64,000 nt of DNA from Pontiella sp. GTDB taxonomy: Bacteria; Verrucomicrobiota; Kiritimatiellia; Kiritimatiellales; Pontiellaceae. The DNA is taken from positions 1 through 64,000 of the forward strand of contig JBNKHE010000004.1 in the NCBI GenBank assembly GCA_050290185.1, given 5' to 3'. The position numbers and the translations under genes were made by a program. Under the pieces are notes generated by a model. It ran no database searches. It was not told the origin of the DNA and saw nothing but the letters and a program-made list of their open reading frames with translations. Positions within the stretch are counted from its first letter, which is position 1. Every line of letters starts with the position of its first letter. Below, piece by piece: positions 25,256 through 41,867 of the stretch.

Positions 25256-27958
25256 ATGATGACTAAACTCACCTTCGCGCTACTGGGCCTTTGCGCCGCA
25301 ACCGCCATGGCTGAATCCCCCGCCAACATGGCTTTGGTCGCCGAATCCTCGACCTCCTATGTCTCGGGCGATACCACGGTCGGCGCACTCAACGACGGCA
25401 TCGAGCCTGTGCGTTCGGACAATCGCGACCAGGGAAGCTACGGCAACTGGCCGAAGCAGCGAACGGAATGGGTGCAGTATGAATGGAGCAAGCCCATCAG
25501 CACCGACGCCATCGAAGTCTACTGGTGGGACGACCATCAAGGGGTCCGGCTGCCATCGGCCGCCCGACTGCTTTACTGGGACGGTGATACGTTCGTCCCG
25601 GTTGAAGCCAACGGAAAAATCGGCGGGGAAAGGGATCAATACAACGAACTGAAATTCACGGAAGTCACCACCACCAAACTCAAACTTGAAATCGACGGTA
25701 CGGATCAATTCTCGACCGGCATTCTGGAATGGAAGGTGTTGGATTCCGGCCAGTCGCCAAACTTCGCCCCCACCGTTTCGGCCAACGAGGACCGGACCGT
25801 CGTTCTCGGCGGAAAAACCTATCTGGGCGGCGCCGTCAAAGTCCTGAAAGGAGACGGCAATGTAAAATGGAGCAAGCAGTCCGGTCCCGGCACGGTGACC
25901 TTCGACGACCCAACCCAAATCGATGCCTCCGCCACCTTCTCCGAGGAGGGCAACTATGTGCTGAAGCTCACCGCATCCGTCGATGGTTTGCAGGGATCCG
26001 ACACGCTCAGCGTACAGGTCGTGCAGGGCCCGCCTGCCGAAAACCTGCATCCGGTCGACACGCAGCCCTACGAGATCGATAGCCCGCTCTGGAACGATCG
26101 CGCCAAGCAGATCATCGTCCACTGGATCCCCCACTGCATCGACAAGATCAACGATCCGAACCTTCCCGAAGGCGGCATCAACAACTTTGAAGAAGCCGCC
26201 AAAAAGCTACAGGGCAAATCCCACGAGGACCACAAGGGCTATGTCTTCTCCAACGCGTGGATCTACAACACCCTGGAATCCATCTGCGTGGCCCTGATGG
26301 TCGATCCCAAGGGCGACCCCCAAATCATCAAGGCGCAGCACGCCATGAAGAAGACGCTGGACGACTGGATTCCCAAGATCCTGGCGGCGCAGGAGCCGGA
26401 CGGCTATTTGCAGACCGTCTTTACCCTGCGCGATTGGCCGCACTGGTCGCCGGAGCACCGTGCAGACCACGAGGGCTATGTCGCCGGCTACTTCCTGGAA
26501 GCGGCCATTGCCCACTACAAGCTGACCGGCGGCAAGGACCTGCGCCTCTACAACGCCGCCAAGAAGCTGGCCGACTGCTGGGTCGCCCATATCGGCCCCG
26601 AACCGGGCAAGCAGGAATGGTTCGACGGTCATCAGGACATGGAAATGGCGCTGGTACGCTTCGGCCGCTTCGTCAACACCATCGAGGGACAGGACAAGGG
26701 CGAGCCCTATATCCAACTGGGCAAGTTCCTGCTGGACTGCCGCAAGAACGGCAGCGAGTACGACCAGAGCCACGTGCCGGTCATTAAGCAGTACGAAGCC
26801 GTCGGCCATGCGGTGCGCGCATCGTACAGCTACGCCGCCATGTCGGATGTGGCGATGGAGACACATGACGTCGACTACCAGAGCGCGGTCATGAGCCTGT
26901 TCGACAACCTGATCAACCGCAAATACTACGTCACCGGCGGCATTGGCAGCGGCGAAACCTCGGAAGGCTTCGGACCCGACTATTCCCTGCCCCATAACGC
27001 CTATTGCGAGTCGTGTTCGAGTTCCGGCCTGATCTTCTTCGAGCAGAAGCTCAACATGGCCTACCACGATTCGCGCTATGCCGATCTCTACGAGGAAACC
27101 CTCTACAACGCGCTGCTCGGCTCGCTGGATCTCGAAGCGGAAAACTTCTACTACCAGAATCCCCTGACGCAATCCAATGCGCGCTATCCGTGGCATGTGT
27201 GCCCCTGCTGTATCGGCAACATTCCGCGCGTCCTGCTGCGGCTGCCGACCTGGACCTACGTCAAGGATGCCGACGACCTGTACGTCAACATGTTCCTGGG
27301 AAGCCGCATCACCGTGCCGGGCATCGCGGGAACCGACGTGGAGATGGTGCAGAAGAGCGCGTATCCGTGGAGCGGCAAAGTAGCCATCACCCTCAACCCG
27401 ACCAGGACCAGCACCTTCGGCCTTCGCATCCGCGTGCCCAACCACGAGGTCAGCGAACTGTATACGGCGACCCCCAAGGCCAATGGCATTTTGTGGATCA
27501 AGCTCAACGGCAAAACGATCGAACCCAGGATTGAAAAGGGCTATGCCGTGATCGAGCGCACCTGGAAGAAAGGCGACAAGGTCGAGTTCGAACTGCCGAT
27601 GGAGATCCAGCGAATCCATGGCAGCGACAAGATCGCCGCCACCCGCGGCGAAGTGGCCCTGCGCCGCGGCCCGCTGATCTACACCTTCGAGTCCGCCGAC
27701 CAGAACCTGAACCAGACCCTTCCGGCTACTGCGGAATTAAAGTCGGTGTGGAAACCGAAAATGCTGAATGGCATCGTGGCCATCGAGGGTAAATGGGCCG
27801 ACGGCTCCGACCTGCTGGCGATCCCCTACTATGCCCGTTGCAACCGCCTCGGCGACAGCAAGGGCCATGGCGGTTTCGGTGGACCGGGCGCCGAAGGCGG
27901 TGGTGACGGAAACCGTTCCGGCGGCCCGGCATCCAAGGTATGGATCGAGGAAAAGTAA
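25256..27958 (+). CDS. GH127 beta-L-arabinofuranosidase with N-terminal discoidin-like and PKD domains
   Basis: HEGY.AG..EAA, GHAVRA.Y, YVTGGIG, YCESC, CPCC.GN, RGPL.Y. Confidence 0.9.
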   Translation: MMTKLTFALLGLCAATAMAESPANMALVAESSTSYVSGDTTVGALNDGIEPVRSDNRDQGSYGNWPKQRTEWVQYEWSKPISTDAIEVYWWDDHQGVRLPSAARLLYWDGDTFVPVEANGKIGGERDQYNELKFTEVTTTKLKLEIDGTDQFSTGILEWKVLDSGQSPNFAPTVSANEDRTVVLGGKTYLGGAVKVLKGDGNVKWSKQSGPGTVTFDDPTQIDASATFSEEGNYVLKLTASVDGLQGSDTLSVQVVQGPPAENLHPVDTQPYEIDSPLWNDRAKQIIVHWIPHCIDKINDPNLPEGGINNFEEAAKKLQGKSHEDHKGYVFSNAWIYNTLESICVALMVDPKGDPQIIKAQHAMKKTLDDWIPKILAAQEPDGYLQTVFTLRDWPHWSPEHRADHEGYVAGYFLEAAIAHYKLTGGKDLRLYNAAKKLADCWVAHIGPEPGKQEWFDGHQDMEMALVRFGRFVNTIEGQDKGEPYIQLGKFLLDCRKNGSEYDQSHVPVIKQYEAVGHAVRASYSYAAMSDVAMETHDVDYQSAVMSLFDNLINRKYYVTGGIGSGETSEGFGPDYSLPHNAYCESCSSSGLIFFEQKLNMAYHDSRYADLYEETLYNALLGSLDLEAENFYYQNPLTQSNARYPWHVCPCCIGNIPRVLLRLPTWTYVKDADDLYVNMFLGSRITVPGIAGTDVEMVQKSAYPWSGKVAITLNPTRTSTFGLRIRVPNHEVSELYTATPKANGILWIKLNGKTIEPRIEKGYAVIERTWKKGDKVEFELPMEIQRIHGSDKIAATRGEVALRRGPLIYTFESADQNLNQTLPATAELKSVWKPKMLNGIVAIEGKWADGSDLLAIPYYARCNRLGDSKGHGGFGGPGAEGGGDGNRSGGPASKVWIEEK

Positions 27959-27967
27959 TACCGATTA
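27691..27967 (+). repeat. direct repeat copy 1 (3' end of the GH127 gene)
   Basis: Aligns by eye with 32974-33253 (about 19 substitutions and one 3-bp indel). Confidence 0.95.
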
Positions 27968-28077
27968 CTGAGAGGTTTTGATGTTTTCTCCCATGCAGGC
28001 CTGCGTTGCGTATCGCAGCCGGCCCGGCTGCCCAGGGAGAATGTAATAACCAATCGATAAACGGTATACAACAATCT

Positions 28078-29082
28078 TCATTCCATCGGCTTCAGTGCAT
28101 TGATCTCGGCCTCCAGATCCGTCAGGCCTGCCAAAATCTCGTCAAAGGTCGGTCGCCGCCCAAAGATCATATCCTGCATCGCAGCATAATCCTTGCGCAT
28201 GGCCTCCAGAATCCGGACCGGAGGTATCAGCTTGAGCGTTCCAGGGCTCGCCAAATCATATTGAGCCCAACCTCGTGGATAAAAACGTTTCTTGAACTCC
28301 ACCACGCTTTTTAGCAGGGAACAATCCGCCAATGCCGCTGCCTTAACCTCCGACTGTGCCATTAAATACAGATCGTAATAATGTCGTGAATAGCGAGCCG
28401 GCATGGCCGACCCGTCCGGACGATGCACCTCGTGATGAAGAATCGTCGCCTTTTCCCAGAACGTACGGTGTGCATCAATCGCCCGGACCGGGCATTCCGA
28501 ATCCTCAAACTGATCCGGAAAATCTTCGGCGGCATACGGGCATACCGTATGATCCGAATGCGGAAGCCAGGACGCCAGCGGCCCGATCTCCAGTTGGATG
28601 TAGGGTAGCAGGTTTCCGGCATCCGATGTTTCCGGATAGCGCACCCGGACAATATGCCCCAAATCTTTTTCTCCCGCATTTACCGCGATTTTGCATTGAT
28701 CGCCCAAAACTTCATCCAGCATACGGAACAGGTCGCCGGCAATATATTCCCGCGCCAACTCGTTTATGCGATCATTCAACCTGCCCTGCTTGCTATTGGA
28801 ACGCTCGGCCATCGGATCTTCGTCCGTCACCGCCCGCCAATCCAGAACCAGGTCGATATCCTCGGAAAAGCGGTCGATCAGCCCGAACACCTTCGACAGA
28901 CTGGTGCCCCCCTTGAAGATCAGCAGCTTCGACAATTCAGCGTGTTCAAAAATGCGTTTCAACGTCCAGCAGACCCAGAAGTCCTTTTCGATAACCGCCA
29001 CCGAACCCAGGCCGCGGCGCTCCGCCGTTACGGTGAACAGTTCACTCCGCTGATTGGCAGACAACGCGGCGACCCGGTTCAT
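28078..29082 (-). CDS. abiEii: AbiEii nucleotidyltransferase toxin (type IV TA)
   Basis: EKDFWV, FKGGTSLSK....RFSEDID, RTFWEK, SRHYYD. Confidence 0.92.
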   Translation of the reverse strand: MNRVAALSANQRSELFTVTAERRGLGSVAVIEKDFWVCWTLKRIFEHAELSKLLIFKGGTSLSKVFGLIDRFSEDIDLVLDWRAVTDEDPMAERSNSKQGRLNDRINELAREYIAGDLFRMLDEVLGDQCKIAVNAGEKDLGHIVRVRYPETSDAGNLLPYIQLEIGPLASWLPHSDHTVCPYAAEDFPDQFEDSECPVRAIDAHRTFWEKATILHHEVHRPDGSAMPARYSRHYYDLYLMAQSEVKAAALADCSLLKSVVEFKKRFYPRGWAQYDLASPGTLKLIPPVRILEAMRKDYAAMQDMIFGRRPTFDEILAGLTDLEAEINALKPME

Positions 29083-29690
29083 GGATTAACCTCTTCCGCT
29101 ATGGTGCGGATGATTTCATGAACCCAGGCCGGTGCGGCCTTCGTATCCCGAACCATCTTCTTCCACAGGGAGGCCGGAACCGCACGGGAAAGCTTGTCGC
29201 GAATGTCCGAATCGATCCGGTCGCGGCCCAGCGACTTCAGCGCCTGAACAACCAGCTCGCTTTCACGATGCTTGAATCCCGACTCCTTCAACGCCCGTTT
29301 CTTGAAGATCAACGCCCGGCTTCCGATTTCATACGTCTTGGCCGGGCCGTCGGACAAATAAACGGCCTGCGCCGGAACCTGCGTCGAAAGCCCCAAAAGA
29401 TTCAGCGCCGTATTTTCCGAAGGCTGGATGCGCCATCCGGATTTACGCGCCAGCGCCTGTGCAACCTGATCAAGATCCGGCCCCATCTGCTGATTCAGGA
29501 GCGTACTGATCCGCGGATAATCATACAACCCGCGCAGGACACGCCGAATCGTTCCATTTTCCTCCAGACGCATCAAAGCCAAACGAATAGCACCATCGCT
29601 TCCATAATCGGAAAAATCAATTTTAGAAAACGACCAACCCCGACCGGAGGAGTATATTCTCTTAATAATCTTGTTTTGAATGGATTGCAT
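29079..29690 (-). CDS. abiEi: AbiEi-type antitoxin (DUF6088)
   Basis: N-terminal wHTH L.RL...G.IRR..RGLY; ALN.LGLSTQVP...YLSDG; ATGA overlap with abiEii. Confidence 0.85.
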   Translation of the reverse strand: MQSIQNKIIKRIYSSGRGWSFSKIDFSDYGSDGAIRLALMRLEENGTIRRVLRGLYDYPRISTLLNQQMGPDLDQVAQALARKSGWRIQPSENTALNLLGLSTQVPAQAVYLSDGPAKTYEIGSRALIFKKRALKESGFKHRESELVVQALKSLGRDRIDSDIRDKLSRAVPASLWKKMVRDTKAAPAWVHEIIRTIAEEVNP

Positions 29691-29730
29691 AAATATCTAG
29701 TCGCATTATTTGTAACAAAATGCACTCATT

Positions 29731-29756
29731 ATTTATTACAAAATTTTGCAATAAAT
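29731..29756. promoter_or_regulatory. inverted repeat upstream of abiE, candidate AbiEi operator
   Basis: ATTTATTACAAAA/TTTTGCAATAAAT, 13-bp arms with 1 mismatch; a weaker palindrome lies at 29703-29723. Confidence 0.6.
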
Positions 29757-29791
29757 CTACGGGCCGTACCACAGGGACCAAGACAGGATAA

Positions 29792-30092
29792 TTGGACAAA
29801 ACACGCGAACCACCGCAGACGGTGTGAATGGTTAAGACAGAATGATTGAATGACAGAATGATTTTCTAATCAGGAATGGAATAATCCTGCCGGCCAATTG
29901 GTCGCACTTGCTTCGAATTGCGTGGTTCATCTCGGTTTTAGGTTAACACCAAGGAAAGGGGCCGGGACGCGCAGCGAGACGGCCGAACAGGCAGAAACGA
30001 CCAGCGGGAATGGCAAAACCCTTTTTCTTAAAACAGGAAAACAGGATCGTCCAAAAGCAGCCAATCCAGGAGTACATCATTTCATAGGACCG
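29792..30092. repeat. mosaic intergenic repeat (modules C, D, B)
   Basis: 29792-29892 matches 49030-49128 inverted; 29901-29945 matches 49132-49176 direct; 29952-30092 matches 33254-33392 and 51255-51357. Confidence 0.85.
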
Positions 30093-30471
30093 ATCCTGCC
30101 CCCTGAGTTAAGCACGAACTAGTCTGGTGCAGGAGCAGGCGAGACGCCTGCGATACACTATTACCGCCGCCATCCTGGTGGCTCCAGAGCCCACTAGAAA
30201 CGGGCGACACGAGAAATGTGCTGCAGACCTGCCCGGATGCATGGAACACGAAGCAAAAAAATCTCTGAAATTCAATTAACTTAGTGCCATTCAAGACCGA
30301 CCCCGTCCCGACCCAGTTTTGTGTAGATGTATATGCCGATATGTTTGACACCTTTCTACACCTTTTAAGTGTGTTTTATATTTAGCAGATGCACCTTGTC
30401 TTTGAAAATATGATGCGATAAAACCCAGCCCGTTTTTTAATGAGAGATTCAACATTGAAAATTGGTTAACC

Positions 30472-32967
30472 ATGAGGTCGAAAATGACAATAAATAAGTT
30501 GCTTCCAGTGCTACTCATCGTGCTGGCTAACGTGTCTATGGGAGCTACCCACTATGTATCATCTACAGGTTCACACACATCACCATACGATACTTGGGCA
30601 ACGGCGGCGACCAACATTCAGGATGCGGTGGATGTGGCTATTGCCGGTGACACGGTTTTGGTTGCCGATGGCGTTTATGTGCTGAGCAGCCAGATTTCGA
30701 TTACGAATGCGATTTCGCTGGTGAGCCAGAATAATCAGGGCGCAACGATCGATGGGAACGGCAGCGTTCGATGTCTTCGTATCACCGCATCCGATGTGCA
30801 GGTTGACGGGTTTCGTATTCAGAACGGAACGGTGAATAAGGGTACGGGCGGGCCCGCCTATGGAGGCAACCTATATTGTGATGACAACAGCGCTGTTATT
30901 GAGAACTGTGTAATTTCCGACGGATACGCGGCCGCTTCATCCAACGGAGGGGCCAAGGGGGGAGGTGCCTACAATGGGACGTACCTGAATTGTGAATTCT
31001 TAAACAATGAGGCCGTTTTTTATGGATTTCCGTATCAGGGGGGCACAACGATTCAGGGAGGAGCGGTGTTTGGAGGTGTACTTACGAATTGCAACGTTAT
31101 CGGAAACGCTTCCTCAAGTAGAAATATGGGACCCCAAGCCTACGGGGGCGGATTGGCCCTCTGCGAGGCGGACGCCTGTCGTATTCAAAGCAACAATACC
31201 TATAACACCGGCGGGGGCGTGTTCAGCAGTACCCTCAGGAATTGTCTGGTGGTTGGAAACGAAGCGAATAGCAGCGGATCGGGCGCACGCGACAGCGCTC
31301 TGGAGAACTGCACGGTCGCGGATAATATCGGCCAGGGAATATACGGCGGCTCCGCCACGAACTGTATTATCTACAGCAATACGGTTGCCAACTGGGCCGG
31401 GACCGTCAGCGTTGCTTACTCATGCACCACGCCGGATCCGGGCGGGGATGGCAACACAACACAGTTTGACGGGTTCGAAAACGGCTATGTTCCTGTTTAC
31501 AACGCGGAGATTGCCAACACAGGGATCTACCTGAGCTGGATGATCGGGGCCGTTGACCTGGCCGGGGCAGCGAGGGTCATTAACGGAAGCGTGGATATGG
31601 GGTGCTATGAGCTGCCCGGCCTCTATCATTACGTGGTCGAAAGCGGATCAACACCATTGTTTCCATACGACTCATGGGCAACGGCCGCCACAAACATTCA
31701 AGACGCGGTCAACGCCTGTTCCAATACCATGAGCGATGTTGTGTTAATCGATGATGGAGTCTATGTCCTGACCCAGCAGGTGCTTATTGCCACAGACAAT
31801 GTAATCGTCCAAAGCGTCAATGGTCCCGGGGCAACGACGATTGATGGCAACGGCTCTGTCCGCTGCCTGCGGATCACCGGGGCGGATGTGTCTGTTGAAG
31901 GGTTCCGGATTCAGGGAGGATATCTATACGGTTCTGGATATAACGTCGCTTTGTATGGCGCGAATGTTTATTGCAACAATGATACGTCAACGTTTCGAAA
32001 CTGCATTATTGCCAATGGCATTGCCTTTACGGCCGGATATTCAAAGGCCCGCGGTGCTGGCGCATACAACGGCACGTATATCAACTGTACGTTCTCTAAT
32101 AATGTAGCGAAATATGCCGGAAGCAGCTACAGCAGCAAGACGGAAGTTAAGGGCGGGGCGGTCTACAGTGGCATACTGGAGAATTGCGCTGTTGTTAACA
32201 ACAGCGCAACCCGTCCAAATAATTTTGGCCCCCCTACTTATGGTGGTGGAGTTTTCAGCAGCGAAGCAACAAGGTGCATCCTTCAGGGAAACTACGCCCG
32301 AGCGGGTGGCGGCGCCTATAGCAGTACGCTGAAGAACTGCCTTGTTGTGGAAAACGAAACGCACAGCGGGGGCGCGGGGGCAGGTGTGAAAAACTCCACG
32401 CTGGAGAGTTGCACGGTCGCGGACAACATCGGGCAAGGCATGAGTGCCGGTTCGGCCACAAACTGTATCATCTATGGCAATACCGTAAGTAACTGGGCGG
32501 GGACAGTCGATATTGCGTACTCATGTACAACACCCGATCCAGGCGGCACAGGGAACATCCTCTCCTTTGAGGGCTTTGACTCGGACTACTATCCCCAGCA
32601 GGGATCCGTAGTGCTCAATGCAGCGCTCGAAATGTCGTGGATGGCAGGTGGCACGGACTTGCTCGGGTTCCCCAGAGTGATTGATTCCGGTCCAGACATG
32701 GGCTGTCAGGAGTACTTCGGTACCAGGGGGATTGACAGCATCGAGGTACAGGGGAATGACGCCATCCTAACGTTCGATCTTTTTGATGGAGTGAATGGTA
32801 TGCTGCAGGCAACGGATGATCTCACCAACGCCTGGACAGATGTAACGTCCTTTTCAGGAGCCGGGACGATCTCGGTCACCAATGATGCAAGTGGTAGTCC
32901 CTGCAAATTCTTCCGTCTGAAGTACGTTAGTCCCTACACAGTCGGCGTTGGCGTTGCGTCCCCGTAG
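30472..32967 (+). CDS. secreted right-handed beta-helix protein, two tandem units with choice-of-anchor-Q-like ends
   Basis: Signal peptide; duplicated HYV...WATAATNIQDAV...IDGNGSVRCLRI...DL.G..RVI...DMGC.E; C-terminal KFFRL domain. Confidence 0.8.
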   Translation: MRSKMTINKLLPVLLIVLANVSMGATHYVSSTGSHTSPYDTWATAATNIQDAVDVAIAGDTVLVADGVYVLSSQISITNAISLVSQNNQGATIDGNGSVRCLRITASDVQVDGFRIQNGTVNKGTGGPAYGGNLYCDDNSAVIENCVISDGYAAASSNGGAKGGGAYNGTYLNCEFLNNEAVFYGFPYQGGTTIQGGAVFGGVLTNCNVIGNASSSRNMGPQAYGGGLALCEADACRIQSNNTYNTGGGVFSSTLRNCLVVGNEANSSGSGARDSALENCTVADNIGQGIYGGSATNCIIYSNTVANWAGTVSVAYSCTTPDPGGDGNTTQFDGFENGYVPVYNAEIANTGIYLSWMIGAVDLAGAARVINGSVDMGCYELPGLYHYVVESGSTPLFPYDSWATAATNIQDAVNACSNTMSDVVLIDDGVYVLTQQVLIATDNVIVQSVNGPGATTIDGNGSVRCLRITGADVSVEGFRIQGGYLYGSGYNVALYGANVYCNNDTSTFRNCIIANGIAFTAGYSKARGAGAYNGTYINCTFSNNVAKYAGSSYSSKTEVKGGAVYSGILENCAVVNNSATRPNNFGPPTYGGGVFSSEATRCILQGNYARAGGGAYSSTLKNCLVVENETHSGGAGAGVKNSTLESCTVADNIGQGMSAGSATNCIIYGNTVSNWAGTVDIAYSCTTPDPGGTGNILSFEGFDSDYYPQQGSVVLNAALEMSWMAGGTDLLGFPRVIDSGPDMGCQEYFGTRGIDSIEVQGNDAILTFDLFDGVNGMLQATDDLTNAWTDVTSFSGAGTISVTNDASGSPCKFFRLKYVSPYTVGVGVASP

Positions 32968-32973
32968 AAAAGG

Positions 32974-33253
32974 GTCCGCCGACCAAAACCTGAACCAGGC
33001 CCTTCCGGCCCATACGGAATTAAAGCCGGTGTGGAAACCGAAAATGCTGAATGGCATCGTGGCCATCGAGGGTAAATGGGCCGACGGCTCAGACCTGCTG
33101 GCCATCCCCTACTACGCCCGTTGCAACCGCATCGGCGGCAGCAAGGGCCATGGCGGTTTCGGAGGACCGGGTGCCGAAGGCGGTGGTGACGGAAACCGTT
33201 CCAGCAACGGCCCATCATCCAAGGTATGGGTAGAGGAAAAGTAATACCGATTA
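32974..33253 (+). pseudogene. duplicated 3' fragment of the GH127 gene (direct repeat copy 2)
   Basis: Encodes SADQNLNQALP...KVWVEEK, near-identical to the GH127 C-terminus; no 5' part. Confidence 0.9.
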
Positions 33254-33392
33254 GAAGGAAAATGGCCGTGACGCGAAGCGAGGCCGCCGACCAGGAAGCA
33301 ACGACCATCGTGAGTTGCCATGCTTCTGACAACTGGAAAACAGAATCGTCCAAAAGTCGCCAATCCTGAAATAATCAGCTCACAGGACCGCC
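33254..33392. repeat. intergenic repeat module B
   Basis: ggccgtgacgcgaagcgag...gaaaacagaatcgtccaaaag..gccaatcc...caggaccg also occurs at 29952 and 51255. Confidence 0.8.
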
Positions 33393-33423
33393 GCAACAAA
33401 CAGACTAAACCATGAGAAACACT

Positions 33424-33906
33424 TTAGTAATAGATTATTTCCTCGTCTCGATATCTCCATTGACGAAAACAACCAAAGAGTGGTTCGCTGAATACTCTCC
33501 AGCCCCTAAGTTCATCAAACTTTCCTAAACCACCTATAATTAGCATTATCGGAGAGTCGATGAAGTTTTCCTCATAACGTGCTATATTTCGTAATGCTCG
33601 CTTATCTCGCCAGCTAAGATAGCTTGAGTTGTTGGGATGTGAGTGCCAATCACCTATGTAAGTGATTTCCCCATTGAATTGATTAAAATAATCCCCGACG
33701 CGGCTTTCGTCCGACACATAATCTGGCACGAAACCTAACCTGCCATGGATGGCATTTGGTCCAGGACCAAGAACATGTGTTATGACGACATCCGACTCAT
33801 CAGTCGCTAGGTATCCCATTAGTACCCCGCCACTTTCCTTAGGGGTTTTTACACAGGCATATTGGATCATTTTTTCATACTCAGATTTCGGGATCCATAT
33901 GCTCAT
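33424..33906 (-). CDS. JAB/MPN+ (JAMM) metalloprotease, Prok-JAB
   Basis: PKESGGVLMG ... YIGDWHSHP....LS..D JAMM motif; start MSIWIPK overlaps the end of the E2-E1 gene. Confidence 0.92.
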   Translation of the reverse strand: MSIWIPKSEYEKMIQYACVKTPKESGGVLMGYLATDESDVVITHVLGPGPNAIHGRLGFVPDYVSDESRVGDYFNQFNGEITYIGDWHSHPNNSSYLSWRDKRALRNIARYEENFIDSPIMLIIGGLGKFDELRGWRVFSEPLFGCFRQWRYRDEEIIYY

Positions 33907-35668
33907 AGGGTGCACAACTTTTGCATTTTTTAATCTTATCAAATGAATATCCGTTCCACTTTGGGAATAACCCGATTCCACTAGAGCGAAGGGATAAAAT
34001 ACCTATGTCATCAACGAGCGGGGGATATGCTCCAGCAATGCCCTCGCAGAGGGTAGAAACAGCCATACGAACTCCAGCCAATGACACTTCTTCAACGTCA
34101 AAGCTTGCTGCATGGAACGTAATATCGCCACAGCCCACGGGTTGTAATTTATCGCCGTTAGGATCAAAGGCTGGAAGCTCAATGTTATCCTCATTTTCAG
34201 GCTCATTCTCAGCTTTCTCCAGAGCTTGCCAAAAGCATAATAAACAACCTGTTTGAGCTGGTAGAACTCTTACTACATGCCCTCCCCAGCCCCCAGGACG
34301 AGAAGCAACCGTCACATAAGGTACCGATAACTCTTTGGCATAAAGAGATAGCATTTGATTAATTCCTCGTTCAGCCGTGGCGTCGAATACTAGATCCACA
34401 CCGTCAAGCATCCTAAAGAGACTTTCTTTTTGTCCAACCTCAGGAGTACCGAGCATAACTCTATCATCTTCTGTCCCAGATAAATGATGATCAATGCTTA
34501 CGTTCGTTAATGGGTAATTACTAGTAATATAATCAATAAGAGCCTTCACCTTACCCTTGCCCATTGCTTGAAGGCCAATTGGCCAGCGACAGATCGTACC
34601 AGCACTTATGAAATCCCCATCTAAGAGTCGAATCTCTCCTATTCCAGCCCTAGCAAAAGCAATGGCACTAGGTGCTCCAACACATCCCAAACCTATAACG
34701 GCTATCTTTTTTCCCCGCAGTGGATTTAGCTCTGGGATACGCTCAAAGATGTCGCACTCTCCAGCGTATTCAACTTTGATAGGGTTGATGATCAAATCCT
34801 GTTTGTTGATCTGAGCCACATAATAAAACAACCATCCATCACGTATCCCTCCTCTTGGGTTCTCCTCTGGAACACAAACAGCAAAAAGCGCATGCTTTTT
34901 CTTTTTGATCTCCAGTTGGAGCCACGAAAAAAGATCTGCGGACATAGCTCTGATACTTTCAACAAAAGCCTCAGAAGATGGCAGGCTAGGAAGACGGAAC
35001 CATGGACATTGCACACGTTTATACTCTTGGGATTTTATCCATTGGTGAATCATCGGGTTAATCGACACTCCATCAATGGGAACGTTTCCATTATCAAAAG
35101 CCACAAGAAGCCATCCCACGAAGGGGCGACCTTTTTGAATATGTTTATAATCACCGGCCACCGATAAGTGCAGAAGCCCTCTGTTTGTCGAATCTGGAAA
35201 TACCCAAGAGCTATCAAACATAATTTGCTGTCTGGCTCCCCTGTAAAACTCGGTCCATGGTTCTGCTTGATGATCTTCGCCTTGCAACCGTTCGTCTTCA
35301 TACTTTCGCGTAGCGACCCGCTCCCATTTTCCAAGCTGCTTAGTGATCAATCCCGCTGCTGTGTCGTTGGGTTGCCAGTGGTCAGTACCCCTTGCCAAAA
35401 GACATAACTCTCCCCCAGGACTATAGTGCCTGAGATCTTCGCCCAACCCTGGAACAATAACTGTGGGGCGTAAATATGGATATAAGTCAGGATACAGCAC
35501 GCTTCCAACACGCTCTTTGCCGAAAATGCTAACGCGAATATTTACCTTTAGCTTTCCTCTCTTTTTTTCAGCCTCATCGATTTCGGGATGAAGTCCGGCG
35601 CTCCGGAGAGCGCCGATCTCTTCTTCCTCGATCGCGGGGTATTCCATCCACCACGGACACGCCTTCAT
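33881..35668 (-). CDS. E2-E1 (ThiF) fusion ubiquitin-like transferase
   Basis: N-terminal E2: YPD.YPY.RP...RHYSPGGELCLL...W; C-terminal E1: IAVIGLGCVG, LLDGD, R, VFDATA, GCLLC, PVGC, CKSC. Confidence 0.9.
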   Translation of the reverse strand: MKACPWWMEYPAIEEEEIGALRSAGLHPEIDEAEKKRGKLKVNIRVSIFGKERVGSVLYPDLYPYLRPTVIVPGLGEDLRHYSPGGELCLLARGTDHWQPNDTAAGLITKQLGKWERVATRKYEDERLQGEDHQAEPWTEFYRGARQQIMFDSSWVFPDSTNRGLLHLSVAGDYKHIQKGRPFVGWLLVAFDNGNVPIDGVSINPMIHQWIKSQEYKRVQCPWFRLPSLPSSEAFVESIRAMSADLFSWLQLEIKKKKHALFAVCVPEENPRGGIRDGWLFYYVAQINKQDLIINPIKVEYAGECDIFERIPELNPLRGKKIAVIGLGCVGAPSAIAFARAGIGEIRLLDGDFISAGTICRWPIGLQAMGKGKVKALIDYITSNYPLTNVSIDHHLSGTEDDRVMLGTPEVGQKESLFRMLDGVDLVFDATAERGINQMLSLYAKELSVPYVTVASRPGGWGGHVVRVLPAQTGCLLCFWQALEKAENEPENEDNIELPAFDPNGDKLQPVGCGDITFHAASFDVEEVSLAGVRMAVSTLCEGIAGAYPPLVDDIGILSLRSSGIGLFPKWNGYSFDKIKKCKSCAPYEHMDPEI

Positions 35669-35821
35669 CTATCCCACATCTCTTCCACCACCGGGTCTTG
35701 GAGGTCTATTTGGTGGACGGTGTGGATTGGGTGGCGGTGTTGCCGGAGTCGCGGGATTACCCGGACCATTGGGATTTGCCGGTGTTGCCGGATTCCCTTT
35801 GCCTTTACCGTTATCATTCAT
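35669..35821 (-). CDS. 50-aa Pro/Gly/Asn-rich peptide ending GGGRDVG; candidate disordered modifier
   Basis: MNDNGKGKGNPATPANPNGPGNPATPATPPPNPHRPPNRPPRPGGGRDVG; AAGGT upstream; TAG stop directly abuts the E2-E1 ATG. Confidence 0.7.
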   Translation of the reverse strand: MNDNGKGKGNPATPANPNGPGNPATPATPPPNPHRPPNRPPRPGGGRDVG

Positions 35822-35909
35822 AACTACTGTACCTTGCCGGGTTTTGGTTAACCCTGTTTTCCCCTCGGCCAGAAAACAGATCCTTGCGGTATTCGCAAAA
35901 CTGCACAGA

Positions 35910-36323
35910 CTATCCCGAAAGAGTAAATGATCTAAGACCCATGGCTTTATCCAGTATAGGATGAATCCATGGAAGACCTCGTGGCGTTTGGGCATCCAGA
36001 AAAAGATGAGAACCATGTGCGGCAGCCAACACCTTGATCATTCGGCCTTTTTTTGAGGATTTAAGCGATGAGTGGTGAGAGGCAATCAAACAAGCCATCC
36101 CCATTCCCAAACTATGGCATCCCTTCCGGTGCCACGAGCTGGTTGCTGGTTCCATTAGGTCGGCAGCCATGCCGCCTAATCCACCGACGACCACTGCGCA
36201 TATCAGTTCGCCTACATTCAATTCCTGTTGATCGCCATTTCGGATGCTCTGTAGCTGAATAGCCGCATCCAGCATGCCACCGATGGCCATTGCCCAGCCA
36301 ACATGTGTTTTTTTATTTGCCAT
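35910..36323 (-). CDS. YdjM-family (LexA-regulated type) membrane metal-dependent hydrolase
   Basis: N-terminal TH, GG..AD..EP....HR..CHS, SHLFLD..TP.GLP; TM segments; GAAAGG RBS. Confidence 0.8.
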   Translation of the reverse strand: MANKKTHVGWAMAIGGMLDAAIQLQSIRNGDQQELNVGELICAVVVGGLGGMAADLMEPATSSWHRKGCHSLGMGMACLIASHHSSLKSSKKGRMIKVLAAAHGSHLFLDAQTPRGLPWIHPILDKAMGLRSFTLSG

Positions 36324-36381
36324 TTCTAACCTTTCAAGTTGGATTTCTTCACAATAACGGGCGAAATCTAACAAAGGCGAA

Positions 36382-36398
36382 GTGACATATGGTGTCCC
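36382..36398. promoter_or_regulatory. candidate WYL-regulator operator
   Basis: GTGACA-TATGG-TGTCCC imperfect palindrome about 60 nt upstream of the YdjM start. Confidence 0.5.
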
Positions 36399-36432
36399 TA
36401 TGAAAAAAAGTTTGCCAAAAAATCAGAACGAT

Positions 36433-37425
36433 TTACCGGCAGGAGAGCTCAGCCATGGCGTGGATTTCCTCCGCAACCAGCTGTTTTAGCTTTGCAGGCC
36501 GGATCACACGGGCGTGTTTGCCCATACCCAATACCCACTGAATGACATTGAAATACGGACGTTGTCCGCTGGCACTTACCCGGAAAGTTACTTCGATATC
36601 GCCGTTCTTCAACTCTCGAATCTTTTGCTTTGCATGCCACTGGCGGTCTTTCACTTCCAGAGACCATTGGTTACTGATACGAATACATACTTCTTTCATA
36701 TCGTCCATCGATGCGAATCCGCCGAAAGAGGATTCTACCAATTCCACCGGATCAAAATCATGCGGACGACGGAATGTTTCTCCGGTTTCGGTTACCTCAA
36801 GTATACGACCGATAGCGAACTGGCGAATTGCTTTATAATGGTGGTTGTAAGCAAAAACGTACCAATCACCATGGATGTTGGCGATGTGGTAAGGATCGAT
36901 GCGGTGGGTTCGCTTACCTGTAGCCCTCTTGCTTTGATAGCCCATTTCGATGGTGCGGCGTTGGAGAACGCTCTGGCATACCGATTCCCACAGTAAAGGA
37001 TCTACCGGAATCGCTGGAGGAGCTACGAAACTGAATTCACTTAGGATTTCTTCAGGATCAATACTGGTTTGTTCTCCGAGGGCTTCCGTCAGGTGAGTAT
37101 ATACCTGTTCCAGCTTATTGGTTATCGGCAGGTCTTTGTATTGGGCCAAGGCATGGCGAGCGATGAGAAGCGAAAATAAGTCGCCTTGTTTCAATGGAAT
37201 AGAGGGGATTGCCCAAGAGGGTTCTGTGTAGTAATAGCCTTTTTTGTTGCGGTCATATTCAAGAGGCGCGTTCCATCGGTCTTTCAGGAATGCAATGTCC
37301 CGTTTAATGGTTCTCTCCGCTACTTCCCAAGCGTGGGATAACTCAGAAATGGAGGGAAACTCTTTCGAACGGATGCGTCGGTCAATATCATACAGCCGTT
37401 CCATTTGTGTTTTACAACGACTCAC
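36433..37425 (-). CDS. HTH-WYL-WCX transcriptional regulator
   Basis: ERTIKRDI..L, GYYY, IDPYHI....GDWYVFAY, IRQFAIGRI, WVLGMG..A.VI.P..L; GTG start after GGAG. Confidence 0.92.
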   Translation of the reverse strand: MSRCKTQMERLYDIDRRIRSKEFPSISELSHAWEVAERTIKRDIAFLKDRWNAPLEYDRNKKGYYYTEPSWAIPSIPLKQGDLFSLLIARHALAQYKDLPITNKLEQVYTHLTEALGEQTSIDPEEILSEFSFVAPPAIPVDPLLWESVCQSVLQRRTIEMGYQSKRATGKRTHRIDPYHIANIHGDWYVFAYNHHYKAIRQFAIGRILEVTETGETFRRPHDFDPVELVESSFGGFASMDDMKEVCIRISNQWSLEVKDRQWHAKQKIRELKNGDIEVTFRVSASGQRPYFNVIQWVLGMGKHARVIRPAKLKQLVAEEIHAMAELSCR

Positions 37426-37492
37426 CAGGGATTCTCCAGCAAACTTCAACCAAGTTCGTGTAAGTGACAGTTTTCCAGCCACACATCAAAGC

Positions 37493-37755
37493 AACAGGGT
37501 CACTCCTATGAAATGATGTTTTCATTCAATCACCCCTGTAGCTTACCAACAGCAAACTCTTGAATAGTTTGAGACTTTACCTGCTTGCCTAAAATGACAC
37601 AAAGCAATTCCCACCTTCGCTTAAAGCTTCGGCGGACGAGCAGGAGCAATGGTATGCGGGGGATATCCCCACACCCATGAGGATCAATCGGTTATAAAAC
37701 GAGGATACCCCTCCGCGCCCCTCAGGACCCTCTGTGGTGAACTTTTTGCACTGAC
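37493..37755. repeat. intergenic repeat module A, copy 1
   Basis: tgatgttttc..caatcacccctgtagctt.ccaacagcaaactcttga...caaagcaattcc...ctctgtggtgaac also occurs at ~39007 and ~48548. Confidence 0.9.
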
Positions 37756-37900
37756 TTGCGCCAACGAAGCAACGCCCTCCATTCCAGCGCTTATCGATCG
37801 ATTCAAAATCGGGAAAAGCATTGGGGTCAGCCAGAGCTTCAACACGTCTCGCGCAAATAATTGATGGCAGGAAAATCCCCCATACGCATCCTCTGCTGGT

Positions 37901-38836
37901 CTACTCGTCGAAAGGAATCAGCAGTTTCTGACCGGGAGACACCGTGGCATCACCCAAACCGTTCAGTTCGCGAATCTCCTTCTCCGTCACCCCGTATTGT
38001 CGGGCGATGTCTTCGAGGGTTTCTCCGGGGTATACGACCCGCACTTCCGGGCCGGAGCACTCGCTAACCTGTTCGGGTACACGATCCATCATCACAGGAA
38101 CCGGTTCCACCGCCGGAGGTTCCTCTACATACGACTCATCCTTCCAGATGAACAGCTTCTTTACGACCCAGGCGGTACCTTTGAAGACGTATCCCAGCGG
38201 ACCAAGCACCTGTTCCTGTTTTTGTGCATTGAGCGTTACCTCCAGCGATGCGTAGTCCACCTTGCCCTTCATGGACTTCAGCCGGGCCGTCATCGAATCG
38301 ATATCACCCTGCAGCCGGGTCAATTCCTTCTCTATCGCCAGGATATCCTTCACATCCGCTGCCTTCTCAAGCAAGGCTTGAAGCCGATCCCGCAGTTTGA
38401 TCTTGGTTTCCAGACGGGCCTGGGTGTCGATATAGCGTTCCGTGACATCCTCCGAAGACAGGCTTTTAGCAATGACCTCACCCATGCCCTCAAGGCCGCC
38501 CACGACCTGCTGAAGCTTTTCCGATGGAACACGCAGGGTCAACGTCACGGAGGGCCGATCCTGATATTTCCGCTGGTGGCTGGACTCCACATAGCCTCCC
38601 ACCGCCTTGGCACATGCCGTTACATCCTCCTGGGTTTCAGCCACACCGGCGACTTCCAGCGTAATGGCCCCCCGCCAGATGAGCATCCGGTCCGACTGCA
38701 CTTCGTCCGCCGCAACGTTCAGGGCGGAATTTCCCGAAAGTGGAGCCCCGTACATGGCTATATCGGAACTGCTGTTTTTAGACATGCATCCTGAAAGCGC
38801 CAGCCCTGCCAGCAAAACGATTGCTGAGTATTTCAT
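37901..38836 (-). CDS. DUF4349 lipoprotein with C-terminal LysM domain
   Basis: Lipobox LSGC; LRVP, EDVTERYID..ARL; V.PGETL.DIARQYGVT..EI.ELNGL...V.PGQ.L.IP. Confidence 0.88.
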   Translation of the reverse strand: MKYSAIVLLAGLALSGCMSKNSSSDIAMYGAPLSGNSALNVAADEVQSDRMLIWRGAITLEVAGVAETQEDVTACAKAVGGYVESSHQRKYQDRPSVTLTLRVPSEKLQQVVGGLEGMGEVIAKSLSSEDVTERYIDTQARLETKIKLRDRLQALLEKAADVKDILAIEKELTRLQGDIDSMTARLKSMKGKVDYASLEVTLNAQKQEQVLGPLGYVFKGTAWVVKKLFIWKDESYVEEPPAVEPVPVMMDRVPEQVSECSGPEVRVVYPGETLEDIARQYGVTEKEIRELNGLGDATVSPGQKLLIPFDE

Positions 38837-38940
38837 TCAGTTTCCCCTTGTGATTGCTGTCGGCCAAATCACCGGCATTGTATTTTGACACATTACGGTT
38901 TCGAATCACCTTCATCAATAACGGCAACTGGATCAGTCCA

Positions 38941-39445
38941 ATGACCTGAGCCTCTTGGCGAAAGAGGCAGGCGTACTATGCCGGCAACGAGCTTTGCGAA
39001 GTGGCAAATGATGTTTTCATCCAATCACCCCTGTAGCTTGCCAACAGCAAACTCTTGAAGAGTTTGAGACTTTACCTTCTTGCCCAAGATGAAACAAAGC
39101 ATTTCCCACCTTCGCTTAAAGCTGCGGCGGACGAGCAGGAGCAATGGCTTGCGGGGGATTCCCCCCACACGCATGAGGATCAATCGATTTGAAACGAGGC
39201 TTCTCCTCCGTGGTTGCCGCTTCGCTGCCGCCGCTCTGCTCCGGCCTCACTTCGTGTCTCAGTGCCCTCTGTGGTGAACCTTTTTTGACTATGCCATTCG
39301 GCTTGGTCGCCACCTCAGCCCAAGGATTCATTAGGCCCAGGTCGCCCCTTCGGGGGTGCGGCACCAGGCTGCTCAGTTCCGTAACAGCCCCCTACTGTTT
39401 TTATCTCCCAGAGACGCAGAGGTCACAGAGTACGGAATTCCAGGA
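38941..39445. repeat. mosaic intergenic repeat (modules F, A copy 2, E)
   Basis: 38948-39008 matches 51362-51422 inverted; 39007-39290 matches 37510-37755; 39332-39445 matches 51120-51231. Confidence 0.85.
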
Positions 39446-39536
39446 AAGAACAACCTGCCGTCCGAGGTGTACGACAGGCTGCCGTGACCGCGCTACGCAA
39501 TCCCGAAGGATCGCGTGCGGGTCGGATGAAGCGGGT

Positions 39537-41867
39537 TTATTGCGCTTCGAGGCGGAAGAATTCCGCGTTGTATGCCCCGGCCGCCACGTTGGTCACGATG
39601 GTCAAACCATTGCCGTAAACGGTCGCATTCGTCGTCCAGGAACCGGATGCCAGATTCGGCTTGCTCAGAACGTGGTAGGTTATCCCGGACTCGGAAACCC
39701 ACATCAGGTTTGCGGTTCCCGCACCTACCCCGATCAGTTGGAGCACCGGTGCGACGGAAGGACCTGCTCCAAATCGGAGCTGCACCTTGTCGACATGCGC
39801 TTCTGTAATGCTGGTATCGTTGGTCGGACTGTTCCCATTCTCCTGGATCATCAAACCAAGCGTGGAGCCGATCGCCGGACTGCCGTTCGTAAACGTATAG
39901 GAGCCGGACCATTCACCGATCGCCCATGAGACATCGGGGACCGTCACTGCGGAATCAATGATGTTCGTGACGCCATCCACGGCATTGCTGTAGCACAGCG
40001 AAACGATAACGCCTGCGGGCCGGTCGGCAAGCACCCATTTGAAGTCGAACCGGTCGCCTTCCGCAATGACATGGTCCGTCAGGTTGACGATCTTCATATA
40101 CCTCTGCGTATTCAGATAACGCGTTCCCTCGGGCGAGGACGTGCCGTAGCGGGTGCTGGCTGTAGCGCCTGCCAGCTTTGTCCAGTTGTCGATCTGGGAG
40201 AAGTCGGAGACGGTGGTCGTATTGCTGGGACTGCCGTTCACCAGCTCGAAACCACCGTTTCGGATTCCGGGGGCAATCAGGTACTGGCCGGAATAGTAGT
40301 CCGGAATCGTTGTAAACGAAAAGTCCACGATGTTGGTCACGCCATCCGTGCGAATGACTTTGAGCTGAACCGTGTAATCCGTGTCGTAGGCCAGGGTGTT
40401 GGCATAGGTGAAGGTCGTGGTCCCGGTGGAGGGGACAGCTTTCGTAGCCGCTACCACGTTCGAGTTGACCAGCATTTCGTAGCTGCTAATCAGCGAGTTG
40501 AAATCCACCTGGATATCCGTAGCAGTCACCACAATGCCCGCATCCACGGCAACGTCGATTACGCCGTCGGACGGAGACGACGAGAAGATCACATCGTCAA
40601 CATCGTTTGTGGTAAGAAACTTAATTTCAGCCACGTTACCATACGCCGCCCCGTAGCAACGGAAGTAGCGGTATGCGGTAGAGCTTCCCGTATACACCCG
40701 GTTCCAGACAGTAGGAGGAGTCCCCGAAACAGTGGCCAGGGTATCCCAGCTGAAACCGTCAACAGAGCCTTGGAACTGGGCCCCATTCATCCGTGGCGCA
40801 TTGCCCGAACGCGGATAGAAATCGACCGCCGGACAGGCCCGTTCGTTGCCCGCTCCCACATCGATGCCAACCCAGGCACCACTCGAGGCGCCGTCGTAGG
40901 CCGTGTCCGGATTGCCGTCAAATACGGCTTCGGGAAGCGTATAGATGCTGTTTTGATACGTTCCTCCGCCATCGGATATGACGGAGAAGTTTGTCACGGT
41001 TCCGGACAGTTCCGTGGATCGATCGCCTTCACCGTTTTCATTCTCGCCCGCAATGGCGAAATAGTAGGTCGTTCCTTCCACCAGGTTGGTGACCCAGTAT
41101 TCCAGCGCATTCGTGGCCGCCACGGCGACATAGTTCGTACCCGAGGTTTCGGACTGGTAGACTGTGTAGTTCGTAGCTACAGCGGCCTCGTTCCAAAACA
41201 GCTTGGCGGTAGTGCCGTTCATCCAGATCTTCCGAACGGTCGGTGCCAGCGGAACCGCGGGTGGCTCTGCGACAAACCGAATCTCGGAGAATCCCGCTCT
41301 AGTGGAGTTGGGATCGAAGGTTTCGATCACCGTGTAGCGCACATCGGTAACGCCAGTAAGCGTGCTACCGAAGGAATACTCTTCGCCGGTGTAGCTTGAT
41401 GAACTCGATGCCTGGGTAAAGCTCATATCTCCGTAGAAAGTCCAGTTGGTCCCATTATCGGTGGAATACTCCACCGTGGCATCCGAGATACCGCGCTGAG
41501 CTTCGACGTAGGAATCCCCTGTCCAGACCTCGTTGTAATTCCAGAGATGGAATCCGGTCAGGTTATACGCGCCGCCAAGCGTGTAGGTGATCGACGCGAC
41601 GCCGCTCGGATCGCCATCGGTAGGGTTGGTACACCATGTACTTCCGGCACCGGTATCGTGGGATGGATAGACCGAAGGGATGGCATCACCGGTTTGCACG
41701 ATGGTGGCATCGGATAGGCCGGCCCCGTTTACCGAGTTAATCGCAGCGCGTTGGGCCGATGTGGCTACCGCACCGGTTGGGTCTACAATAATGTTGGTTT
41801 GGGCACTGGCACTGATGGCCAGCATCAGCGTAGCAAAACCGCCCGCTATCATCTTCATTGTTTTCAT
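39537..41867 (-). CDS. secreted multidomain protein (discoidin/F5-8-like, FN3, Ig-like, C-terminal FFRL domain)
   Basis: Signal peptide; L.G.HLWNYNE...SEIRF; FN3 YYFAIAG.N..GEG; FDG..DT...NVAEI.F. Confidence 0.75.
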   Translation of the reverse strand: MKTMKMIAGGFATLMLAISASAQTNIIVDPTGAVATSAQRAAINSVNGAGLSDATIVQTGDAIPSVYPSHDTGAGSTWCTNPTDGDPSGVASITYTLGGAYNLTGFHLWNYNEVWTGDSYVEAQRGISDATVEYSTDNGTNWTFYGDMSFTQASSSSSYTGEEYSFGSTLTGVTDVRYTVIETFDPNSTRAGFSEIRFVAEPPAVPLAPTVRKIWMNGTTAKLFWNEAAVATNYTVYQSETSGTNYVAVAATNALEYWVTNLVEGTTYYFAIAGENENGEGDRSTELSGTVTNFSVISDGGGTYQNSIYTLPEAVFDGNPDTAYDGASSGAWVGIDVGAGNERACPAVDFYPRSGNAPRMNGAQFQGSVDGFSWDTLATVSGTPPTVWNRVYTGSSTAYRYFRCYGAAYGNVAEIKFLTTNDVDDVIFSSSPSDGVIDVAVDAGIVVTATDIQVDFNSLISSYEMLVNSNVVAATKAVPSTGTTTFTYANTLAYDTDYTVQLKVIRTDGVTNIVDFSFTTIPDYYSGQYLIAPGIRNGGFELVNGSPSNTTTVSDFSQIDNWTKLAGATASTRYGTSSPEGTRYLNTQRYMKIVNLTDHVIAEGDRFDFKWVLADRPAGVIVSLCYSNAVDGVTNIIDSAVTVPDVSWAIGEWSGSYTFTNGSPAIGSTLGLMIQENGNSPTNDTSITEAHVDKVQLRFGAGPSVAPVLQLIGVGAGTANLMWVSESGITYHVLSKPNLASGSWTTNATVYGNGLTIVTNVAAGAYNAEFFRLEAQ

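Follow-up and report, generated by a model that had tools for sequence, protein, structure and literature searches.

The sequence analysed here, referred to below as the window, is a stretch of 64,000 nucleotides from Pontiella sp. (assembly GCA_050290185.1, contig JBNKHE010000004.1, positions 1 to 64,000). On its minus strand it carries a 50-codon micro-open reading frame (ORF) directly upstream of the genes for a Cap2-like protein, in which a ubiquitin-conjugating-type (E2) domain is fused to a ubiquitin-activating-type (E1) domain, and for a Cap3-like JAB/JAMM metallopeptidase. The micro-ORF was read from an ATG at 35821-35819 to a TAG at 35671-35669, and its product has the sequence MNDNGKGKGNPATPANPNGPGNPATPATPPPNPHRPPNRPPRPGGGRDVG. 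In a mechanically generated ORF list, this frame is listed solely as the final part of a 115-aa ORF (35669-36016), whose start falls within the preceding gene. The TAG directly abuts the ATG (35668) of the 595-aa E2-E1 ORF, giving the junction TAGATG. The peptide contains the motif GNPATPA twice (residues 9-15 and 21-27) and 15 prolines (30% of its residues), and Val49 is its sole hydrophobic residue beyond Met1. An earlier prediction made from the DNA alone, hereafter the original prediction, had described the frame with its internal ATG and upstream AAGGT, the GNPATPA duplication, the absence of a hydrophobic core and the abutting stop codon just as they were read here; its count of 16 prolines was one too high.

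The peptide matched no family in the Pfam and PADLOC scans, nor does it look like a beta-grasp protein, given its proline content, its single hydrophobic residue after Met1 and a predicted local distance difference test score (pLDDT) of 43-46 in the complex model described below. The same scans detected no ubiquitin-like protein (Ubl) among the other cassette genes of the window. A search of window positions 27000-40000 against Rfam returned zero families, and the counts obtained in promoter and terminator scans were at chance level (5 versus 6.3 and 8 versus 5.5). A weak terminator-like stem was observed at 35900-35882, between the peptide gene and the YdjM-like gene that precedes it.

The N-terminal domain of the E2-E1 protein exhibited the E2 motif RHYxP..GE.C89LL, and its E1 domain was characterized by GLGCVG at positions 326-331, followed by D429-ATAE, a zinc tetrad (C475/C478/C582/C585) and a cysteine, C513, on a flexible loop. 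The Cys89 motif, GLGCVG, Asp429, Cys475, Cys478, Cys585 and Cys513 were invariant among 25 aligned homologues, and Cys582 was kept in at least 90% of this alignment. The AlphaFold2 model of the protein had a mean pLDDT of 79.8 and a predicted template modelling score of 0.75, with low confidence in the Cys513 loop (505-521). Its best match in the PDB, over the full length, was Cap2 of Enterobacter cloacae (7TO3_A, E 4.6e-22, 601 columns); by sequence, the relationship to solved Cap2 was distant (E 6.6e-08) and covered the Rossmann region only. Further fold matches were BubCD, UBA5, Atg7, ThiF, PaaA and MccB, with those to UBA5, ThiF, PaaA and MccB confined to the E1 part. According to Ledvina et al. 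(bioRxiv 10.1101/2022.03.31.486616), the E1 catalytic cysteine of Cap2 lies on a crossover loop by a disordered stretch, the same placement as that of Cys513 in the window protein. The JAB protein carries the motif residues E49, H113-x-H115, S123 and D126, and its conserved start is probably Met26 (about 33906). In the JAB alignment, E49, H113 and H115 were invariant in 16 out of 16 sequences, and S123 and D126 were present in 15 of them.

Table 1. Genes and signals of the cassette and its upstream neighbours in the window
Feature	Position	Strand	Evidence and remarks
Cap3-like JAB/JAMM metallopeptidase	33424..33981	-	Prok-JAB 2.7e-11; PADLOC JAB 9.8e-27
Cap2-like E2-E1 fusion, 595 aa	33881..35668	-	Pfam ThiF 1.9e-16; PADLOC E1-E2 up to 2e-31
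Proline-rich foldless 50-aa peptide gene, ending R-D-V-G	35669..35821	-	Proposed conjugatable tag; sequence, conservation, ratio of nonsynonymous to synonymous polymorphism (pN/pS), modelled dock
Shine-Dalgarno-like AAGGT	35831..35835	-	9 nt 5' of the peptide ATG
YdjM-like predicted membrane metal hydrolase	35910..36374	-	YdjM 3.7e-08; between regulator and peptide gene
Helix-turn-helix (HTH)-WYL-WCX transcription regulator (CapW/BrxR/PafBC type)	36433..37482	-	WYL 4.6e-15; WCX 9.2e-10; PADLOC WYL 2.2e-31; PafBC 1.2e-09

Homologues of the E2-E1 protein numbered 87 at E <= 1e-10. Alignment-based scans of genome contigs retrieved 31 loci (L004-L008 and L009-L034), where a scan with the single E2-E1 protein had returned zero. 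Eight of these loci were excluded, five with a match beginning at a contig edge (L005, L015, L018, L027 and L030) and three with a short or weak match (L008, L033 and L034). A proline-rich ORF ending at or beside the E2-E1 start was present in all 23 loci retaining upstream DNA, a recurrence well beyond chance, and in nearly all loci GGAG, AGGAG or GAGG was seen by eye 5-10 nt ahead of the peptide ATG. The distance from the peptide stop to the E2-E1 start was between -8 and +6 nt in 26 out of 29 loci; the remaining three comprised one gap of +28 nt and two loci in which the script located no start. Besides the TAGATG of the window, the junctions took the forms TAATG, TGATG and ATGCTGA. The geometry of translational coupling assumed in the original prediction was a recurrent feature of these loci.

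After the removal of three near-identical duplicates, 21 peptides were aligned. Arg47, Val49 and Gly50 (R-x-V-G) and six prolines were invariant in all of them. The peptides ended in VG in 16 cases and in VG followed by AC or GC in five, so that the invariant glycine, as is typical of ubiquitin-like modifiers, was either terminal or two residues from the end. Family members ranged from 31 to 59 residues in length, and apart from the prolines the C-terminal R-x-V-G was their only invariant feature. Variable C-terminal residues were among the findings that would have refuted the original prediction, and on this point it held. The internal GGG, by contrast with the terminal glycine, was found solely in a Geobacter-like clade that includes the window; other clades carried PPKDRPVG, PPHPRPVG and similar sequences. 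Lysine was absent from 3 of 27 peptides, and the lysines of GKGKG were not conserved. A profile search of protein databases with the peptide matched four proteins, a figure that says little about family size because scoring was limited to the 8000 candidates with the most words in common.

Variation in the last 28 codons of nine loci was distributed as expected for a translated frame, with 10, 12 and 28 of 28 sites variable at the first, second and third codon positions, respectively. The pN/pS ratio was 0.23 in the peptide frame versus 2.9 and 1.9 in the two other frames. These two measures indicate a protein-coding gene, and the frame is under purifying selection. We regard it as practically certain that the micro-ORF is a genuine gene.

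Independent copies were sought in plasmids by tblastn, which returned 19 records, 10 of which were inspected. Five of the ten, from Actinomycetota, Alphaproteobacteria and Bacteroidota, carried a peptide ORF, and the other five had CBASS (cyclic oligonucleotide-based antiphage signaling system) or other architectures. The peptide tails were ...PPGPRPVG in Arthrobacter sp. FB24, ...PPSHRPVG in pNGR234a of Sinorhizobium fredii NGR234 (an unannotated ORF, 5 nt before the E2-E1 gene), ...PPPHRPVG in Sphingobium fuliginis (under an over-long annotated ThiF start), ...KDRPVGQQ in Hymenobacter sp. NBH84 (annotated as a hypothetical protein) and ...PPDHRPVG in Iamia sp. SCSIO 61187. On the S. fuliginis plasmid p1 (L037, locus 3695-3828), RefSeq places the start of the ThiF-family gene about 130 nt too far upstream; its frame crosses the peptide gene in another frame, and the alignment-supported start is near 3821-3835. 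In a blind test on 401 genomes of another phylum, one new member (L061, on G358:C1) was identified, with a Pro/His/Glu-rich ORF overlapping the enzyme start. Its tail, ...DRPRRYGRACL, has Tyr in place of Val and four residues after the glycine. The R-x-V-G tail (R-R-Y-G in L061) spans Thermodesulfobacteriota, Acidobacteriota, Actinomycetota, Pseudomonadota and Bacteroidota, as well as the window genome and metagenome contigs.

The same slot is occupied differently in CBASS loci. Annotated CBASS loci on Gloeocapsa, Deinococcus and Nitratidesulfovibrio plasmids (three out of three) had a nucleotidyltransferase/CD-NTase (cGAS/DncV-like nucleotidyltransferase) in the position of the peptide gene, with the tails ...PGGFA, ...GSGSSG and ...SGASGA. 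A Ruminococcus plasmid had a 134-codon frame with a weak DncV_C match there, and a Bradyrhizobium plasmid had a differing architecture. Five more Cap2-type loci, from a search of 401 genomes, exhibited a long upstream ORF ending in ...GGSRWGK, ...ASGRFA, ...GGGRFA, ...GAGRFA or ...GGGRFATTGEYLD; Pfam SMODS exceeded the cut-off in one of these ORFs, gave a weak match in two and no match in the other two, and each of the five is cut by the locus edge. The peptide gene thus takes the position that the cyclase has in CBASS loci, and the two have similar tails (PGGGRQVG for the peptide, PGGGRFA for cyclases). A search of 401 genomes for type 6a systems (fused E2-E1-JAB) with PADLOC model PDLC00827 yielded CBASS-type Cap2 loci and no 6a. 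In a quick tree, 24 peptide-linked E2-E1s fell on one side of the branch that separates them from eight CBASS Cap2s. This branch had a Shimodaira-Hasegawa-like approximate likelihood ratio test (SH-aLRT) support of 91, below the mark of 95 set for the tool, and it suggests that the peptide-linked enzymes share a single origin.

We modelled the complex of the E2-E1 protein (25-row alignment) with the peptide (its own alignment), ATP and Mg. The interface score ipSAE (interaction prediction score from aligned errors) was 0.64 (0.64, 0.67 and 0.59 in the three runs) versus 0.00 for all three controls, and the runs agreed in at least 57% of their contacts. The mark for a dock was reached by 116 out of 157 solved complexes and 2 out of 215 mismatched pairs, a calibration obtained without separate alignments or ligands. 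In the model, confident contacts involved only peptide residues 41-50 and lay in the E1 adenylation site: Gly50 contacted 328-331 (P-loop) and 430 and 432 (region of the Mg-Asp motif), Val49 contacted 455-458, 518, 520 and 525, and Arg47 contacted 432. The positions touched by the docked tail were mostly invariant, or nearly so, in the 25-homologue alignment. Docking of the R-D-V-G end in this site, proposed as a check in the original prediction, was seen in the model. Ledvina et al. reported that only the last seven residues of the cyclase occupy the adenylation site of Cap2, and that the AMP conjugate is formed when a tail of 12 residues is fused to an E1 domain (bioRxiv 10.1101/2022.03.31.486616). 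The dock supports substrate-like binding rather than demonstrating it, because likeness to solved complexes could explain the pass.

To describe the neighbourhood of the cassette, 94 ORFs lying near it in 17 related loci were searched against Pfam. A JAB gene was found directly downstream of E2-E1 in the 15 loci with a scanned downstream ORF; L019 gave no JAB match, and in L032 the contig stops within the enzyme gene. The regulators were a CapH/CapP-like pair of an HTH protein and an M78 peptidase in nine loci, and a WYL protein in L022 and in the window. Among the 94 ORFs, as among the cassette genes of the window, no CD-NTase (SMODS) was detected, and no conserved family of nucleotide-activated effector adjoined the cassette in the window or in the 17 loci. 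A DUF2188 gene was observed in four loci, upstream of the peptide gene in L010, L013 and L014 and downstream of JAB in L017. Lau et al. (2022; bioRxiv 10.1101/2022.04.27.489752) noted that CapH/CapP regulators accompany 6a systems, and they list operons with DUF2188 among those under CapH/CapP control. The surroundings of the cassette included GmrSD, restriction-modification genes, HipA, integrases, a recombinase and type IV secretion genes, and 12 of the 19 plasmid records were typed as conjugative. The family was missing from 400 other sampled genomes of the phylum of the window, including seven of the same genus, and was present in 2 of the 401 genomes sampled from the other phylum. With this distribution, the cassette behaves as a rare accessory element that moves horizontally.

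In the window itself, the WYL regulator, which additionally matches other WYL proteins besides PafBC, is likely to control the cassette. The membership of the YdjM-like gene in the system is uncertain because it shows no conservation across the other loci, with zero YdjM matches among the 94 neighbour ORFs, and we did not retain it as a component. The minus strand also carries, at 28078-29690 and about 4 kb from the cassette, two overlapping genes, one for an AbiEii nucleotidyltransferase toxin (334 aa, 6.7e-41) and one for a DUF6088 protein (203 aa, 4.4e-36); these form a type IV toxin-antitoxin or abortive-infection pair. Between this pair and the cassette lies the gene of an 831-aa, secreted-looking protein with two similar halves (30472-32967, plus strand); the copies of a 157-nt repeat within this gene, at 31300 and 32401, are 75% identical. 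Two dispersed pairs of direct repeats, one of about 280 nt (27691-27967 and 32974-33253, 92-94% identity) and one of about 190 nt (37511-37698 and 39006-39194, 91-92% identity), lie on either side of the E2-E1 cassette and the blocks of genes next to it. In another part of the genome (G000:C1:60102-60328), partial copies of the two types were observed adjacent to each other, and further copies are present on the contig of the window. An attC-like structure of these repeats was rejected, their single-strand folds not being unusual (z -1.3 and -1.0).

Taken with the conserved tail and the modelled dock, these loci lead us to propose that the micro-ORF product is probably a foldless modifier, activated at its terminal glycine and conjugated, with JAB trimming it or reversing the conjugation. 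In other words, it would be the substrate, or 'ubiquitin', of a three-gene cassette made up of the peptide, the Cap2-like E2-E1 and the Cap3-like JAB. Transcription would be released by a regulator responsive to DNA damage or infection (WYL in the window, CapH/CapP-like elsewhere), and translational coupling would co-produce the peptide and E2-E1. The E1 domain would bind only about the last ten residues of the peptide and adenylate Gly50. The peptide would then be carried as a thioester on loop Cys513, passed to Cys89 of the E2 domain and transferred to an amine of one or more target proteins. JAB would strip the two-residue extensions of some members and reverse the conjugates; the extensions (AC, GC, QQ) point to a trimming role in the loci that have them, and by analogy with Cap3 its role in loci without extensions is likely to be deconjugation. 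Adenylation, the thioester relay, conjugation, the identity of the targets and a role in defence or for the mobile element are all steps that we infer. We lean, by a small measure, towards the broader idea that a foldless, polyproline-type peptide is a further prokaryotic modifier beside beta-grasp Ubls and Pup, joined via its terminal Gly by a ubiquitin-type E1-E2 cascade, and that conjugation itself, to proteins of phage, plasmid or host, would be the output of a widespread cassette that DNA damage induces and that moves horizontally.

The original prediction had already outlined a disordered, non-beta-grasp modifier activated by E1 at a C-terminal glycine and served by a JAB peptidase, and this core gains from the invariant R-x-V-G and from the dock. 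Two of its details fared less well. It had left the choice between the terminal glycine and the internal GGG as the conjugation site; the terminal glycine, or the glycine of VG where two residues trail, is the better candidate because GGG is limited to the Geobacter-like clade, and the internal site was rejected. Chains linked through the GKGKG lysines were likewise rejected as a family feature, because these residues are not conserved and some peptides have no lysine at all.

Among described systems, type II CBASS is the closest in its enzymes, with a Cap2-fold E2-E1 (7TO3_A; PADLOC E1-E2 2e-31) and an adjacent JAB/Cap3. The two share the E2-linker-E1 architecture, a JAB gene directly following, a substrate gene directly upstream, regulators of the WYL or CapH/CapP type, and recognition of the substrate via a disordered tail whose last residue is Gly or Ala (Ledvina et al., bioRxiv 10.1101/2022.03.31.486616; Jenson et al., PMC10097602). 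They differ in that the window cassette and the 17 related loci have no CD-NTase or cyclic-nucleotide effector, and in that the substrate here would be the tail alone, as a Pro-rich peptide of 31-59 aa. Iyer, Burroughs and Aravind (2006; PMC1779556) listed type 6a, with a fused E2-E1-JAB and a metallo-beta-lactamase, and type 6c, with E2+E1, JAB and a predicted metal-binding protein (two Cys, His and an acidic residue) and pNGR234a as its prototype; the available part of that paper names no Ubl or small peptide substrate for types 6a-6c. Like these types, the window cassette combines E2+E1 and JAB without a nucleotidyltransferase, and the prototype E2-E1 of pNGR234a is a homologue of the window protein (25% identity, 97% coverage), its JAB lying outside the incomplete PLSDB gene table. 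In place of the predicted metal-binding protein of type 6c, the window has the YdjM-like metal hydrolase. Bil and Bub systems also combine E1, E2 and JAB in bacterial cassettes, and conjugation itself is considered their output (bioRxiv 10.1101/2023.09.26.559546 and 10.1101/2024.11.21.623953); the fold matches to the window E2-E1 include BubCD. These systems encode folded ubiquitin-like proteins, unlike the window cassette. As far as our literature searches reach, with supplements and subscription journals outside their scope, a cassette with a foldless tag is undescribed in print, and no description was found of a proline-rich peptide as the substrate of a Cap2-like enzyme.

Two modifiers from other systems are of interest for comparison. 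The mature tail of UFM1 reads ...R-V-G, and its E1, UBA5, ranks high among the structures that match the E1 domain of the window protein in fold. As in the peptide, a single C-terminal Gly rather than di-Gly is used, and removal of the dipeptide Ser84-Cys85 from the UFM1 precursor, which exposes Gly83 (PMC12076054), is comparable to the VG+AC, VG+GC and VG+QQ endings seen here. UFM1 differs in its folded beta-grasp, its separate E2 and E3 and its processing by a cysteine protease. The peptide tail ends in R-x-V-G, not in the GGQ or GGE of Pup, and no PafA/Dop was seen within the cassette, to which that search was confined. Pup is a small, intrinsically disordered bacterial protein modifier, in this respect like the peptide, and is joined via a side-chain carboxylate by the glutamine-synthetase-like ligase PafA. 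Here, the machinery is of the E1/E2/JAB type, and the proposed site is the main-chain carboxylate of Gly.

Several observations weigh against the peptide as a conjugated substrate. The pass of the dock may reflect a memory, in the model, of Cap2-cyclase, ThiF-ThiS or UBA5-UFM1 complexes; moreover, the fold of the peptide itself was uncertain in the complex, and the use of separate alignments and ligands falls outside the calibration. No target, E3 or reader was evident, and the neighbour ORFs of the 17 loci included no conserved effector gene. The JAB of L014 (L014:5725-6228) is without the stretch holding the JAMM Ser and Asp, which may point to degeneration of this copy or to an error of assembly. 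The quick tree has long branches, its key branch is below the mark and the careful search is unfinished. Finally, the proline runs and the stop/start overlap would fit a translational leader, in which slow, EF-P-dependent translation of the proline runs makes E2-E1 synthesis depend on completing the ORF, and the peptide itself has no function. Consistent with this, there are 1-11 PP pairs per peptide, the peptide stop touches or overlaps the E2-E1 start in almost every locus, and the conserved residues adjoin the stop codon, as they do in some arrest peptides. We nevertheless consider a leader without any further function unlikely. The Geobacter-like clade, the window included, has only 1-3 PP pairs and keeps R-x-V-G and the tail while 28 out of 28 third positions vary. 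The motif lies two residues from the stop in six copies and four in L061, which argues against a stop-linked arrest motif, and the tail matches those of Cap2-activated cyclases and docks, in the model, in the E1 site. Translational coupling and a substrate role are, moreover, not mutually exclusive.

A peptide that acts as a pseudo-substrate or regulator of the E1 site, or that is charged without transfer, with the actual cargo or product being something else, would also agree with a dock that gives binding geometry only and with the lack of a known target. This seems improbable to us, since Cys89 of E2 and Cys513 of the E1 loop are invariant and an isopeptidase-type JAB is retained, all of which would be costly without transfer, and inspection of the 17 loci by eye revealed no further conserved gene whose product ends in Gly or Ala. 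The short ribosomal substrate and the presence of MccB and PaaA among the E1-domain fold matches (ranks 27 and 42-49) recall ribosomally synthesized and post-translationally modified peptides, the E1-like domain adenylating the C-terminus as in MccB/MccA and PaaA/PaaP and JAB serving as the maturation protease. A precursor of this kind is very unlikely: the MccB and PaaA matches span the E1 part only (283-410 columns) whereas the Cap2 matches cover the full length, the N-terminal domain resembles E2, with a Cys that is invariant, instead of being a peptide clamp, and no exporter or immunity gene was conserved in the 17 loci. It is hardly credible that the ORF is what is left of a CD-NTase tail, in decay and functionless at present, in a degenerate CBASS operon. 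The peptide gene does stand where CBASS loci have the cyclase gene, its tail is like those of cyclases, and both cyclase and effector are missing from the cassette; against this, the frame is under purifying selection, the tail is kept across loci of five named phyla, the peptide-linked enzymes group together in the quick tree, and the catalytic residues of the enzymes are intact.

If the peptide is indeed a conjugated modifier, E1-E2 chemistry would need only a tail of about ten residues, and the ubiquitin fold would be dispensable for the reaction. Cap2/Cap3-type operons without a cyclase or Ubl (types 6a and 6c) have been listed since 2006 without a substrate, and a gene of 31-59 codons, mostly unannotated and in one case crossed by a RefSeq enzyme start, would supply one. 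Ubiquitin-type tagging would then work with a bare tail, the peptide and its enzyme would constitute a minimal, genetically encodable pair of tag and ligase, and the targets of such defence-island cassettes would become a directly testable question.

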